Made by a program: the position numbers and the translations under genes. The notes under the pieces were generated by a model. It made no database searches, was not told the DNA's origin, and worked only from the letters and a program-made list of their open reading frames with translations. DNA of 64,000 nucleotides from assembly GCA_903821335.1 (NCBI GenBank), contig CAIJKV010000189.1:2612-66611 (forward strand), read 5' to 3'. This document shows positions 51,207-61,633 of this stretch, in pieces. Position 1 is the first letter of the stretch. Every line of letters starts with the position of its first letter. The stretch is from an uncultured beta proteobacterium. Its GTDB lineage: Bacteria > Pseudomonadota > Gammaproteobacteria > Burkholderiales > Burkholderiaceae_B.

Positions 51207-52093
51207 CAGAAGCAGCATTCCGCTGTGGTTTTGTAGCAGTCGTTGGTCGTCCCAACGTTGGCAAATCCACACTGACCAACGCCTTGATTGGCAGCAAGAT
51301 TTCCATCGTGTCGCGCAAGGCGCAAACCACGCGTCACCGTATCAATGGGGTGCTCACACGAGACCATGAACAGTTCGTGTTCGTTGATACCCCCGGCTTC
51401 CAGACCCGCCACGGCGGTGCCATGAACAAGATGATGAACCGTGTGGTCACCCAGACGCTGGCAGACGTCGATGTGGTGTTGTTCGTGGTCGAAGCCGGCA
51501 AGTGGTCCCCCGGAGATGCCAAGCTGCTGCAGTTGCTGCACAACCCGACGCGTACGATTCTGGTCATCACCAAGATTGACCAGATCAAGAACCGCGACAC
51601 ACTGTATCCCTTTGTTCAGTCCATCGCGGCACAATTCGCGTTTGATGCCGTGGTGCCCGTCAGTGCAAACAAACGTCATCAGCTTGACCAGTTGCTCGAC
51701 GAGATCTCCAAGCGTTTGCCCGAGAACGAACCGTACTTCGAGGCCGACACACTGACCGATCGCCCCATGCGCTTCATCGCGTCAGAGCTCATCCGTGAAA
51801 AGATTTTTCGTCTGGTGGGCGACGAGCTTCCTTACGGTTGCACGGTAGTCATCGAGCAATGGGATGAAACCCCCAAGGGTGTGGCGATCGCCGCCTGCGT
51901 GATCGTCGAGCGTGAAAGTCATCGCCCGATTTTGCTGGGTGTCGGTGGCAGTCACATGAAGCGTATTGCCAGCGAGGCGCGTCAGGATATCGCCAAGCTG
52001 CTTGATCTGCCCGTCCACCTTGAGGTTTATATCAAGGTCCGCAAAGGCTGGGCTGAGAAAGAAAGCAGCCTGCGCGACCTGGGTTATGAGTAA
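51203..52093 (+). CDS. era: GTPase Era
   Basis: [23 protein letters not shown] domain. Confidence 0.98.
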
Positions 52094-52685
52094 ACGCGTA
52101 CTGCGTATACATGAAGTGCCAGGCTATGTGCTACATGCCACTGCCTGGCGTGAAACCTCCCTGATTGTGCAGACCTTTACCCGTGATCATGGGTGGGTCA
52201 GTCTAGTCGCCAAAGGTGCCAAGCGCCCTCACTCCATCCTGCGTGCGGCCTTGTCCGTCTTTCAGCCCTTGCTGCTGTCCTGGACCGGTTCGGGTGAAAT
52301 CAAGACACTGACTCGGGCTGAATGCGCGGGTATCCACACGATCGCAGGGCCTGCCCTGATGTCGTGCTGGTACATGAATGAACTGTTGTTCAGGCTACTC
52401 CCCCACGAAGACCCACACCCCAGATTGTTTGACGCGTATGTGATGGCGTTGCAAGGTCTGGCGGCAGGTCAGGCGGCGGCAGGCGCATTGCGCCGGTTTG
52501 AATGGACACTGCTGCAGGAGTCTGGTTACGGACTGGATGTGCCAGACCCTGATTTTGATGACGCCCAACAAGAGCCCGCCTTGCGGGCAGCCTTGCGCAG
52601 TCGCCTGTCCGAGCACCTGGCAGGCAAGCCGCTTGCCACGCGGCAGGTTCTGGTGGCACTGCAGCAGTATCAACTGCCTAAATAA
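52086..52685 (+). CDS. recO: DNA repair protein RecO
   Basis: YVLHATAWRETSLIV, VAKGAKRP, YMNELL, LRRFEWTLLQESGY. Confidence 0.94.
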   Translation: MSKRVLRIHEVPGYVLHATAWRETSLIVQTFTRDHGWVSLVAKGAKRPHSILRAALSVFQPLLLSWTGSGEIKTLTRAECAGIHTIAGPALMSCWYMNELLFRLLPHEDPHPRLFDAYVMALQGLAAGQAAAGALRRFEWTLLQESGYGLDVPDPDFDDAQQEPALRAALRSRLSEHLAGKPLATRQVLVALQQYQLPK

Positions 52686-52741
52686 GTTCAACAGACTGCT
52701 ATTGCGGCACCGAAAGTCAGCAGCCACAAATTTCATCACAC

Positions 52742-52779
52742 AAAAAAATCACCCGGTTCGCGACAACACGACCGGGTGA
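52742..52779 (-). terminator. Intrinsic terminator for the minus-strand adh transcript
   Basis: TCACCCGGT...ACCGGGTGA stem with a 7-U tail on the minus strand. Confidence 0.8.
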
Positions 52780-52782
52780 ATA

Positions 52783-52852
52783 CTCTCTTGTCTTTTTTAT
52801 TGATGATGTTTTCTTTTTATTTTTCTTCTTCTTCTTTTGTTTGTCTCCCCCC
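52783..52852 (-). repeat. Extremely purine/A-rich tract with (AAG)4, candidate Hfq-binding RNA
   Basis: Minus strand GGGGGGAGACAAACAAAAGAAGAAGAAGAAAAATAAAAAGAAAACATCATCAATAAAAAAGACAAGAGAG. Confidence 0.6.
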
Positions 52853-52888
52853 GCCGTATGTTCGACTGTGGTTCTTGCGTAATGGATG

Positions 52889-53947
52889 TTAGGCCGTCAG
52901 CACCGCACGTCCGGTGACCTTGCCCTCGCGCAGTGACATCAGGACGCGGTCGGCATCTGCCAGCGGATGCTTGGTCACCTGAATGGGCTTGATCTTGCCG
53001 TCGAGCACCAGCTGCATGAGTTCGCGCATTTCGGCGAGTGAGCCGGTGTAGCTGCCAATGATGCTGAGCGCTTTCATTGGAATGAAGGCAATCGGCCAGG
53101 GTGCGGCACCGCCGAACAACCCGACGATGACCAGCTTGCCGCCTTTGATCAGGCAGTCAAAGGCAATGCTGGTCGTGGAGGGCGCACCGACCAAATCGAT
53201 GACAGCATGTACGGCCTTGCCGCCATTTGCCTTGATGATCTGCTGGGCGGCATCTGCCGCTGCACCATCCACCACTGCCATGGCACCTGCATCCAGTGCT
53301 GCCTGGCGCTTGACGGGATCGATATCGACCACGATTGCGCCAGCACCACCCAGCGCATTGACCAGTTCCAGACACATCAAACCCAGACCCCCGGCACCCA
53401 TGATCACAACCGGGTGCTTTTGATAGGTCTTTGCGCCGACCTTGTTCAGCGCACTATAGGTCGTAATACCCGAGCACGCGTAGGGGGCGATCTGCGCAGG
53501 ATCGAGATCACCAATTTCAATCAGGTAACGTGCATCGGGCACCAGCAGGTGATCGGCGTAGCCGCCCGACTTGTACACGCCCAGGTACTGGGGAGCTGCG
53601 CAGTAGTTCTCCAGCTCGTCCAGGCAGGCCGGGCACTTGCCGCAACCAATCCATGGGTACACCAGATAGTTCAGGCCTTTGGCCACGCCCGAGGCCAGAG
53701 GACCCGTCGCCACGACGGTACCGACGGTCTCATGTCCCATGGTCAGGGGCAGGTTGATGCCACGATCTGTAAGCGACAGCGTGCGGCCGTTGCCCAGGTC
53801 GTAGCCGCCTTCCCAGATGTGAAGGTCACTGTGGCAGACGCCCGCCGCACGGACTTCCAGCAGGACCTCGCCATCCTTGGGCTCAGGCGTTGGGACGTCC
53901 CGTTGCTGCAGGGCTTGCTTGAAATTCATGACGCAATAGCATTTCAT
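52889..53947 (-). CDS. Zn-dependent alcohol dehydrogenase (6-hydroxyhexanoate dehydrogenase-like MDR)
   Basis: GVCHSDLHIWEGGYDLG, GHE, structural Zn C-C-C-C, GAGGLG, GRAVL. Confidence 0.9.
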   Translation of the reverse strand: MKCYCVMNFKQALQQRDVPTPEPKDGEVLLEVRAAGVCHSDLHIWEGGYDLGNGRTLSLTDRGINLPLTMGHETVGTVVATGPLASGVAKGLNYLVYPWIGCGKCPACLDELENYCAAPQYLGVYKSGGYADHLLVPDARYLIEIGDLDPAQIAPYACSGITTYSALNKVGAKTYQKHPVVIMGAGGLGLMCLELVNALGGAGAIVVDIDPVKRQAALDAGAMAVVDGAAADAAQQIIKANGGKAVHAVIDLVGAPSTTSIAFDCLIKGGKLVIVGLFGGAAPWPIAFIPMKALSIIGSYTGSLAEMRELMQLVLDGKIKPIQVTKHPLADADRVLMSLREGKVTGRAVLTA

Positions 53948-53967
53948 GTTCAGGTTCTCCGTTCAGA

Positions 53968-55176
53968 TCACTTCTTGACGAGGGGGCATTCACTTTTTGC
54001 AAGTGGCACAAACAATTTATCACCGGGAATCGTAGCCAGTATCTTGTAGACATCGTTGGGCGACTTGGATTCTGCGGGCGACTTCACCTGGACTGAATAC
54101 AGGTCCATGATGACGCGACCATCCTCAGGACGAACCCTTGCGTTTTTGATCAAGGGTGATTTCACTGGAAGTTCACGCATTTTCTTGTTGACCGCAACAG
54201 CCTCGAAAGTGCCGGCAGCTTTTACAGCCTCGAGGTACTGCATGGTGCCTACGTAAGAGAGCGCCTGAACCATGGAGGGTGCACGTGTGAAGCCAGTCTT
54301 GGTTTGCCAGCGCTTGGTCCATGCCCGGGTGTCATCGTCCAGGTCCCAGTAAAACGGTGTGGGGAAAGTCAGGCCCTGTGCCGAGGCCAGACCCATGCCC
54401 AGCACATCGTTGATAAACACCAGGAAGGTCAACAGACGTTGTTTACTGCCGTCCAGACCGAATTGCTGCGCTTGCTTGATCAGGTTGATCAGGTCGCCAC
54501 CTGCACTGGAAATCCCGATGACGTCGGCACCGGAGGATTGTGCCTGCAACAGGAATGATGCAAAGTCTGTGGCGCCAAGCGGGTGGCGCGCGTTGCCGAG
54601 CACCTTGCCACCTTCTTGCGTGACGAACTGGCTGGCCGTGGCTTCAAGGGACTTGCCAAAGACATAGTCGGTCGTGATGAAGTACCAGGTTTTTCCACCT
54701 TGCTTGACCGTGCTGCTGACAACCGCATTGGCCAGGGCGTAGGTATCGGGGGCCCACTGCGTGCTGATGTCGGTACACTGCTTGCCACTGAAGTCACCGG
54801 CAAAGCCGCCGCTGATAATGGCTGACCCGCCTTTCTCCTTTGCGACGTTTACGCCGGCCAGGCCGGTCGAACTGGCGCCACCGTCTACCAATGCCACCAG
54901 GTTCTGTGTGTCGAACCAGCGGCGGATCATGGTGCTGGCGATGTCCACTTTATTTTGTGTGTCACCACCAATCACTTCAATTTTCTTGCCCAGAACCGTT
55001 CCGCCAAAATCTTCGACTGCCATCTTGACAGAGGCCTCAGAGCCCAGGCCACCCAGGTCGGAGTAGATGCCGGAACGATCATTGGCCACGCCCAGCCGCA
55101 CCACGTCGGATTGCGCGACCGCCGTTGCGGCGACCAGGGTACAAGCCAGCGCTGCGGCGAGCTTTTTCAAAATCAT
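53968..55176 (-). CDS. Orphan ABC substrate-binding protein (Leu/Ile/Val-binding family)
   Basis: Signal peptide; DRSGIYSD, DTQNKVDIA, WYFITTDYVFG; clear paralog of 13772-14986. Confidence 0.9.
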   Translation of the reverse strand: MILKKLAAALACTLVAATAVAQSDVVRLGVANDRSGIYSDLGGLGSEASVKMAVEDFGGTVLGKKIEVIGGDTQNKVDIASTMIRRWFDTQNLVALVDGGASSTGLAGVNVAKEKGGSAIISGGFAGDFSGKQCTDISTQWAPDTYALANAVVSSTVKQGGKTWYFITTDYVFGKSLEATASQFVTQEGGKVLGNARHPLGATDFASFLLQAQSSGADVIGISSAGGDLINLIKQAQQFGLDGSKQRLLTFLVFINDVLGMGLASAQGLTFPTPFYWDLDDDTRAWTKRWQTKTGFTRAPSMVQALSYVGTMQYLEAVKAAGTFEAVAVNKKMRELPVKSPLIKNARVRPEDGRVIMDLYSVQVKSPAESKSPNDVYKILATIPGDKLFVPLAKSECPLVKK

Positions 55177-55337: not shown

Positions 55338-55373
55338 GAAAAAACCAAGGGATATCCCGCAAGGAATATCCCT
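55338..55373 (-). terminator. Intrinsic terminator after the ThDP-enzyme operon
   Basis: AGGGATAT..CC-GCAA-GG..ATATCCCT hairpin with a U-rich tail on the minus strand. Confidence 0.6.
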
Positions 55374-60637: not shown

Positions 60638-61633
60638 TTGAAAAAGCACAGGTTTTTATTCCGTGTTCTGGTCTTGGCGACAGCGTTGACCGGTGCATTG
60701 TCTCCGCTGACGCACGTCCGGGCGCAGGCGTTTCCGACTCGACCCGTCACGGTCATCGTGCCTTATCCGGCAGCCGGGGCGGCAGATATTTTTGGTCGCT
60801 CGATCGCGCAAGCTATGGAACAAACGCTCAAGCAGCCCGTGGTGGTTGAAAACAAACCGGGCGCAGGTGGAAACCTGGGGATGACCGTTGTTGCCCGCAG
60901 CAAACCCGATGGTTACACGATCGGGTTGGGCACGATCGGCACGCAGACGATCAACCAGTTTATTTATCCGGAGATGCTGTTTGATCCGGAAAAGGACTTG
61001 GTGCCCATCGCATTGGTGTCGACCACTCCCAATGTGCTGGTGGTGTCAGCCACTTCTGCCTGGAAAACGCTGCCGGATGTGATTGCTGCTGCCCGGGCGG
61101 CCAAAGATAAAAAACTGACCTATGGCACGCCTGGCGTCGGCTCTTCACCTCATCTGACAGGTGCCTACTTTGAAGCCATGGCGGGAGTCGAGTTACTGCA
61201 TGTGCCGTTCAAGGGTATATCGGCGTCGATGCCGGCGCTGATTGGTGGGCAGATCGATCTGTTGTTTGACAATTTGCCTGGGTCGATTAACCAGATCAAG
61301 GATGGTTCGCGTGTGCGGGGCATTGCGGTCACCTCGAGCCATCGCACACCGTTGGCACCCGACTTGCCGACGTTCGCTGAATCGGGTGTACCTGGGTTTG
61401 ACGTGACGGCCTGGTTTGCAATCTATGCACCACGCGGCACCCCGCAACCTGTCATGGACAAACTGATCGAGGCGGCGCGCGTGGGGTTGGCTTCTGAAAA
61501 AGTGATTCAGGCGTACGCCAAACTGGCAGCGCTGCCAGGCACGCTGTTCGGACCCGATCTGGGTGCGTTTGAACAGTCTGAACGTGTCAAGTGGGGCAAA
61601 CTTATCAAGGAACGGGGGATCAAGGCAGAATGA
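60638..61633 (+). CDS. Bug/TctC tripartite tricarboxylate transporter substrate-binding protein
   Basis: FPTRPVTVIVPYPAAG, VENKPGAGG, DGYTI, GVGSSPHL, HVPFKG, WFAIYAPRGTP. TTG start after AGGAG. Confidence 0.93.
   Translation: MKKHRFLFRVLVLATALTGALSPLTHVRAQAFPTRPVTVIVPYPAAGAADIFGRSIAQAMEQTLKQPVVVENKPGAGGNLGMTVVARSKPDGYTIGLGTIGTQTINQFIYPEMLFDPEKDLVPIALVSTTPNVLVVSATSAWKTLPDVIAAARAAKDKKLTYGTPGVGSSPHLTGAYFEAMAGVELLHVPFKGISASMPALIGGQIDLLFDNLPGSINQIKDGSRVRGIAVTSSHRTPLAPDLPTFAESGVPGFDVTAWFAIYAPRGTPQPVMDKLIEAARVGLASEKVIQAYAKLAALPGTLFGPDLGAFEQSERVKWGKLIKERGIKAE

Follow-up and report, generated by a model that had tools for sequence, protein, structure and literature searches.

The minus strand of the 64,000-nt stretch of bacterial DNA analysed here (the window) carries a 66-nt A-rich tract in the 3′-UTR of adh, a gene for a Zn-dependent alcohol dehydrogenase (ADH), and a tract of the same kind is present in a single sister species. 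We consider it most likely, with a probability of about 0.5, that this tract is a lineage-restricted, low-complexity A-rich insertion or expansion, tolerated as a by-product and without a dedicated regulatory role. It is probably not an evolved, trans-acting decoy RNA.

The A-rich tract and its place in the sbp-adh transcript

The initial annotation of this DNA had described about 70 nt of almost pure purine between the adh stop codon and a good intrinsic terminator, unstructured and dense in A-R-N and AAnAAnAA motifs. The sequence that it quoted was found on the minus strand at exactly that place, and the layout was confirmed as that of a 3′-UTR (Table 1). The tract consists of 44 A, 12 G, 6 C and 4 T (85% purine); it starts 40 nt past the adh stop and ends 3 nt short of the terminator hairpin. 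Folding with ViennaRNA predicted it to be unpaired in both the MFE and the centroid structures. A-R-N triplets follow one another nine times in one register and seven times in a second, and TRF described the core as a repeat of period 3 with 8.7 copies and 82% matches, at a low score of 31. On the minus strand, the tract is crossed by no ORF of at least 20 codons.

Table 1. Positions of the A-rich tract and of the elements around it (numbering of the window)
Feature	Position	Strand	Basis or remark
recO, convergent with adh, longest ORF	51966-52685	+	Pfam RecO_N, RecO_C
Spacer from terminator to recO stop, 56 nt	52686-52741	.	Missing in sister species (alignment)
U7 tract of intrinsic terminator	52742-52748	-	Sequence
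Terminator hairpin: outer stem UCACCCGGU / ACCGGGUGA, inner 4-bp stem, UUGU loop	52749-52779	-	Folding
A-rich tract, 66 nt, predicted unpaired	52783-52848	-	Composition, genome scan, folding
Tract core: nine consecutive A-R-N triplets, also degenerate (GAA)n	52810-52836	-	A-R-N run search and TRF
Post-stop spacer, 40 nt, GC-normal	52849-52888	-	Evolves freely
adh, Zn-dependent alcohol dehydrogenase, 352 aa	52889-53947	-	Pfam ADH_N, ADH_zinc_N; stop TAA at 52889-52891
sbp, periplasmic solute-binding protein (Peripla_BP_6)	53968-55176	-	Pfam E 4e-93; first gene of likely sbp-adh transcription unit

Pfam searches also bore out the neighbouring genes as they had been named: the minus strand encodes a Zn-dependent ADH, and recO converges on it from the plus strand. 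In the wider gene order, minus-strand genes for a ThDP enzyme, a Peripla_BP_6 protein and the Zn-ADH converge on the plus-strand series lepB-rnc-era-recO. The sbp gene lies 20 nt upstream of adh and is itself preceded by a conserved intergenic region of 267 nt. For recO, gene callers returned a 199-aa version that starts near 52086. The hairpin that closes the adh 3′-UTR combines a 9-bp outer stem with a 4-bp top and has a predicted folding energy of about -19 to -23 kcal/mol (z -4.9 relative to shuffles, ViennaRNA); a simple terminator pattern scan missed it solely through its loop definition. On the minus strand the U7 tract follows one base after the stem, and on the plus strand the first U run comes 12-14 nt after the stem, both here and in the sister species. 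A U tract directly after the stem on both strands, as in a bidirectional intrinsic terminator, was not present at this hairpin. Since the first U run of the plus strand lies that far beyond the stem, the hairpin is a one-way terminator that serves adh.

Promoter searches found no sigma-70-like promoter within 52300-54200, and no sigma-54-like TGGCAC-N5-TTGC element with up to two mismatches on either strand of 52640-54560, so that any RNA bearing the tract must derive from the sbp-adh transcript. The sole perfect match to the sigma-54 core TGGCAC-N5-TTGC in the window is located at 61353-61367 on the plus strand.

A scan of the whole assembly (3,985,736 bp, 58.1% GC) placed the most A-rich 50-mer of the genome, on either strand, inside the tract (37 A in 50 nt). 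The run of nine A-R-N triplets was the second longest of the genome, the longest being a tandem pentamer repeat. When the 70 nt upstream of 587 terminator-like sites were compared, they contained on average 20.7% A (sd 6.7%); the site of the adh terminator, at 61-63% A, was the lone outlier, and the next highest of the 587 reached 50%. The tract is more than chance, and its description as striking in a GC-rich genome was upheld. Taken together, the ranking of A-rich 50-mers and the comparison of the 587 sites indicate that it is a singleton of this genome and not a member of a dispersed class. Elsewhere in the genome, A-rich windows correspond to short tandem repeats or to promoter regions that are AT-rich. 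The places directly below the adh tract in A content are taken by short, A-rich, intergenic tandem repeats of the same genome (G000) at C5:47512-47561, C5:60445-60494 and C55:8080-8129, with repeat units (AAAATC)n, (GAAAT[TA])n and (AAATNAAAT)-like.

The tract in conspecific, sister and more distant genomes

Thirteen conspecific metagenome contigs from other samples reach the tract. The ADH is identical in eight of them and differs by one residue in four, and the 5′ end of the thirteenth is aberrant. With this last contig excluded, they differ from the window at 0-9 positions per 1.9-4 kb, which is too few for a selection test. No length variants of the tract were detected among the 13 contigs, three of which end inside the spacer. 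A single A>C SNP falls inside the tract (contig L132), and the most diverged conspecific contig has all three of its intergenic SNPs in the 40-nt post-stop spacer.

The sister species, whose ADH (P0002) is 95% and whose RecO is 89% identical in amino acids, has the same gene order. Its adh is 84.6% identical to that of the window in nucleotides, and four-fold sites are 47-50% identical, with transitions at 0.20, transversions at 0.315 and a K2P distance of 0.87. In the 3′-UTR of the sister, a 38-nt spacer is followed by a 64-nt tract with 44 A, by a hairpin with the same outer stem and a different palindromic top, and by U runs. Alignment of the two species gave an identity of 0.40 for the post-stop spacer, compared with 0.43 in shuffles of the same composition (z -0.7, chance level), and of 0.69 for the tract, compared with 0.63 in shuffles (z 2.1, barely above chance). 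The terminator was conserved (z 4.4), and the promoter-side intergenic region of sbp strongly so (z 14.5). The two species thus agree in where the tract lies, how long it is and what it is made of, even though its sequence is close to saturation, and the matching layout of the sister hints at constraint. No seed conserved across relatives emerged from DNA searches, synteny or the sister alignment.

The named relatives reached through the ADH protein were Sheuella, Zwartia and Jezberella, and then Achromobacter and Bordetella. An ADH orthologue of 75-83% identity was present in 49 of 54 congeneric species genomes, and recO was convergent downstream of adh at 22 of the 29 congener loci examined. 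The conservation in related genomes to which the initial annotation had looked turned out to be poor: outside the sister species, the tract was absent from every relative examined at 53-83% ADH identity (29 congeners and other genome and metagenome loci). At those loci, no 50-mer in the 400 nt downstream of adh contains more than 24 A. In agreement with this, a BLAST search with the 203-nt spacer against 40 relatives returned chance matches only (best E 0.007 over ~20 nt). Neither scans of metagenome and genome collections nor a search of 5.8 billion proteins retrieved an ADH between 83% and 95% identity, and therefore only two lineages carry the tract.

In the relatives, the adh-recO spacer measures 5-297 bp (just 5-40 bp in many congeners), and its content is unrelated: some spacers hold nothing, others a plain terminator, tandem repeats of 10-12-mers or an element with an inverted repeat. 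Several relatives have a terminator with the same CCCGG/CCGGG core and only a short A-rich segment before it, for instance AGACAAT in L010 or AAAAAACAAAC in L052, an Achromobacter-like metagenome contig. Since these relatives keep the core, the terminator would be ancestral, and the tract would have been inserted or expanded upstream of it.

Unrelated tandem repeats fill the adh-recO spacers of L011, L039, L042, L043/L044 and L142. They comprise a 12-mer array (CGTTCGTCCTAA-like) of ~190-300 bp, a GGACTTAAAG 10-mer array and a GGCGGATTTAACT array. The copy number of the 10-mer array differs between L043 and L142 despite 99.9% identity of the ADH CDS, and the 12-mer array shows a ~100-nt difference between L011 and L039, which are 71% identical at four-fold sites. 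In another five loci (L019, L028, L023, L030 and L025), a conserved inverted repeat of ~45 nt (CGATTGTTGGCGAT...GCCAGCAATCG) directly follows the adh stop and may be a REP-like or U-less hairpin element. At a different locus (L215:1463-1540), an unrelated A-rich tract of 75 nt, built around an (ACAAAA)n core, was found in the congener G042. It is intercistronic, separating a 188-aa ORF from the gene that follows; its T-rich strand is the sense strand, and a small hairpin and an RBS come after it. A genus-wide search for runs of at least eight A-R-N triplets, intended as a class search, was swamped by coding CAG/CAA/AGC repeats and was uninformative.

Hfq and the RNAs that bind it

The genome contains a single hfq gene (102.8 bits). 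Its 79-aa product has the core SIYLVNGIKLQG...YKHAIS, which includes a YLVNGIK segment, and matches solved structures, among them the E. coli poly(A) complex 3GIB (E 2.8e-34). In E. coli numbering, the SIYLVNGIKLQG...YKHAIS segment holds Y25, G29, I30 and K31 of the distal face together with K56 and H57 of the proximal face, with YLVNGIK presumably forming the distal face as it does in E. coli Hfq; the rim patch is RKEH here instead of RRER. Given the position of the tract in a 3′-UTR, its predicted unpaired state, its density of A-R-N and AAnAAnAA motifs and a canonical Hfq, it is physically plausible that an RNA carrying the tract binds the distal face of the protein, and the tract, once expressed, would probably be bound by Hfq. 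The proposal of an Hfq-sponge or decoy RNA therefore holds as far as the canonical Hfq and the unpaired A-R-N tract are concerned. It does not hold with regard to a promoter, which was not found, to Rfam matches, which stay below threshold, or to conservation, which is poor. The GGAGAC sequence that had been proposed to mimic mRNA leaders is GCAGAC in the sister species, and the further idea of a catabolite-control decoy RNA is one that nothing yet supports.

Among known systems, CrcZ, CrcY and CrcX of Pseudomonas (RF01675) are similar to the tract in being unpaired, A-rich RNAs with AAnAAnAA or A-R-N motifs and in their link to catabolic genes. CrcZ is reported to bind the distal face of Hfq via six A-rich stretches with a Kd of ~7 nM, and thereby to titrate Hfq (PMC5501646). 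However, CrcZ is ~400 nt long, contains six motifs, has a sigma-54/CbrB-dependent promoter of its own and is conserved genus-wide, whereas the tract is one 66-nt stretch, promoterless, restricted to two species and located in a betaproteobacterial host. Of the properties that mark CrcZ, the tract has several unpaired A-rich motifs, and it has neither a score at the gathering level nor a sigma-54 promoter. The Rfam model for CrcZ gave 18.5 bits in the window region and 15 bits at the sister locus, compared with a gathering score of 95, so that the tract is no relative of CrcZ.

The class II Hfq-dependent sRNAs (CyaR, RF00112; ChiX; MgrR) likewise consist of an A-R-N-rich single strand, a GC-rich terminator hairpin and a U tail. 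Unlike them, the tract has no promoter, no conserved seed and no first stem-loop, and the likeness appears to rest on composition and a generic terminator. The CyaR model had no match in the window region and reached 30.9 bits at the sister locus, below its gathering score of 47. At that locus, the tract and terminator of the sister (L129:2610-2700, plus strand) align with the CyaR model from end to end, with an E value of 0.00045 on 261 nt. This match appears to result from composition and a generic terminator, and what drives both sub-threshold matches, to CrcZ and to CyaR, is the succession of an A-rich single strand and a GC-rich terminator. Judged by these scores, the tract belongs to neither family. 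Other Rfam matches, to RefA9, the rimP leader and the BiP IRES, were all sub-threshold in the window region and at the sister locus.

With the processed 3′-UTR-derived sRNAs and sponges of type II, such as CpxQ and SroC, the tract shares its place at an mRNA 3′ end and the use of the parental terminator; an RNA containing the tract would need endonucleolytic release. The base-pairing seed of known 3′-UTR-derived sRNAs such as CpxQ and SroC is conserved, and so are the RNAs themselves between genera. By comparison, nothing beyond composition is conserved in the tract, which is known here from sequence alone.

Origin of the tract and competing explanations

Selection for Hfq binding is the alternative that deserves most attention, even if we think it unlikely. 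According to this explanation, the tract would be a module that works in cis and tunes the stability of the sbp-adh mRNA by drawing Hfq to its 3′ end, or it would be released by RNase E as a class-II-like 3′-UTR-derived RNA, which would occupy the distal face of Hfq with (A-R-N)n and the proximal face with its U tail and titrate Hfq upon induction of the operon. The unpaired 66-nt tract, with its nine and seven A-R-N triplets in two registers, adjoins a strong hairpin with U7, and Hfq is encoded with a conserved distal-face segment. The sister species keeps composition and length while the sequence diverges, as expected of a ligand that is defined by composition. The sub-threshold Rfam matches to Hfq-dependent A-rich sRNAs (CrcZ, 18.5 bits; CyaR, 30.9 bits, in the sister) and the precedent of CrcZ, with its distal-face titration of Hfq via six A-rich stretches (PMC5501646), point in the same direction. 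On the other hand, such a module would lack a promoter of its own and would exist in two species only, all other examined relatives with the same adh being devoid of it. Neither the GGAGAC motif nor a seed is conserved, the residual identity being barely over that of shuffles (z 2.1). Moreover, 66 nt can hold at most ~2-3 Hfq hexamers, so that titration would need very high expression.

Three further explanations assign the function to the plus strand or to the DNA itself. Read-through RNA from recO, which is U-rich on this strand, could form a termination zone, either by Rho loading or by weak rU:dA hybrids after the hairpin, and so shield adh from antisense transcription. The recO gene has no canonical terminator of its own, polymerase would read the hairpin first and then a U-rich, G-poor stretch, and C exceeds G in the window (12 vs 6). 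We nevertheless hold termination of this kind to be improbable: the first U run lies 12-14 nt past the stem in both species, which does not make an intrinsic terminator; the strand is rich in U and not in C, and G outnumbers C in the sister (9 vs 7), which weakens the Rho site for recO that had been put forward as an alternative; and most congeners have just 5-40 bp and no terminator between the two genes, which argues that termination is dispensable there. Even less probable is a role at the DNA level, in which an AT-rich, easily melted or bent segment would bind a nucleoid protein or relieve positive supercoiling between convergent units. The location between convergent operons, the strong AT-richness in a 58% GC genome and the comparable tract of a congener in the opposite transcriptional orientation would fit such a role, but the A runs are not phased at ~10.5 bp (their spacings are 6, 6 and 15 nt), the tract is a genome singleton and every other congener examined lacks it at this junction. 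Least credible of all is a small hydrophobic peptide, rich in Phe, Ser and Leu, encoded on the plus strand by a 38-codon GTG ORF (52776-52892), to which the A-rich RNA would be the antisense partner in the style of a type I toxin-antitoxin system. In both species an open frame begins at a GTG that lies within the conserved stem, and its product would form a single hydrophobic helix. However, the T-rich strand of the sister is open in all three frames across the tract, so that openness follows from composition alone, and the plus-strand ORFs were set aside as composition artefacts, effectively refuted. In addition, no promoter and no Shine-Dalgarno sequence were found for the ORF, a hairpin of about -20 kcal/mol encloses its GTG, and the predicted peptides (38 vs 67 aa) share composition only.

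Under the preferred explanation, that of a lineage-restricted expansion, the A-rich segment would have arisen just upstream of the ancestral sbp-adh terminator, in the common ancestor of the two sister species within a freshwater genus of Alcaligenaceae/Burkholderiaceae. As no promoter of its own is detectable, it would be transcribed solely as the last ~100 nt of the sbp-adh mRNA. A 3′ end of this kind, in which unpaired (A-R-N)9 RNA adjoins a hairpin and a U tail, would load Hfq by way of both the distal and the proximal face. The effect, if any, would most likely be local, on the decay or 3′-end handling of the sbp-adh mRNA, or else amount to an incidental titration of Hfq in proportion to expression of the operon. 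Several results favour an origin by expansion. Across the genus, unrelated filler accumulates in the adh-recO spacer and changes fast (5-297 bp, none with more than 24 A in 50 nt), the core of the tract is a degenerate (GAA)n, and no promoter, no Rfam family above threshold and no second copy in the genome were found. The short A-rich segments that precede a terminator of the same core in relatives fit growth from a short seed, and the G042 tract, with its T-rich sense strand, argues that A-rich tracts arise in either orientation, which favours an origin at the DNA level.

Neutral decay from a near-pure A run can account for the purine and A content of both species. An all-purine ancestor decaying at the four-fold transversion rate (fraction Q = 0.315) predicts 19.6% pyrimidines per lineage, and 15% and 20% were observed; a pure poly(A) ancestor is expected to retain ~65% A under F81, and 67-69% was observed. 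Under simple F81, the probability that both lineages keep at least 44 A is ~1e-2 for an ancestor with 90% A and falls to ~2e-4 for one with 80% A. The neutral account thus requires an ancestral run of ~65 nt that was almost pure A. A fresh slippage product could have been pure enough, and the retained composition of the sister does not prove selection. Against neutrality stands the observation that the two species have kept 66 and 64 nt, with 44 A in each, though four-fold sites are ~50% identical and the adjoining spacer is randomised. The true tandem repeats found in the same spacer vary in copy number at 99.9% CDS identity, whereas the tract differs by 2 nt between species, which also argues mildly against neutrality. 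Bacterial deletion bias is expected to erode useless DNA, and the spacers of only 5-40 bp in many congeners suggest that it could have done so here. These points leave real room for selection on composition.

The tract resembles cryptically simple or microsatellite-type expansions in being lineage-restricted and of low complexity, in its (GAA)n core, in its repeat-prone spacer and in having an analogue in G042. It is unlike them in that copy number does not vary among conspecific contigs and that length is nearly unchanged at saturated synonymous sites. Of the features that characterise a VNTR, internal short-period repetition is present (TRF score 31), and length variation between close strains is not.

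If the tract is filler, it carries a caution, namely that a genome-unique A-R-N tract beside a terminator is insufficient to call an Hfq sponge, and it would mean that the convergent-gene junction of this genus collects unrelated low-complexity inserts. If it has been selected, it would show that a 3′-UTR needs almost nothing to evolve a composition-defined Hfq ligand, and the titration of Hfq by catabolic transcripts would extend to freshwater Betaproteobacteria. One form of the latter, which we rate as doubtful, is the de novo birth of an Hfq-binding 3′-UTR RNA, in which a short A-rich seed would have grown to ~65 nt and been held at ~68% A by selection for occupancy of the distal face while synonymous sites became saturated. 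Induction of sbp-adh would then feed back on the pool of free Hfq, and the tract would be a minimal, promoterless CrcZ-like decoy outside the Pseudomonadales. The pair of species, with a common architecture and different sequences, provides a simple test system.

A separate element lies at the other end of the sbp-adh unit. In the 267-nt gap between the ThDP-enzyme gene and sbp, positions 55349-55372 of the minus strand form a perfect palindrome (GGGATATTCC-TTGC-GGGATATCCC), and a T run comes after it. The palindrome is also kept in the sister species, and it may be the terminator of the upstream operon, an operator or both.
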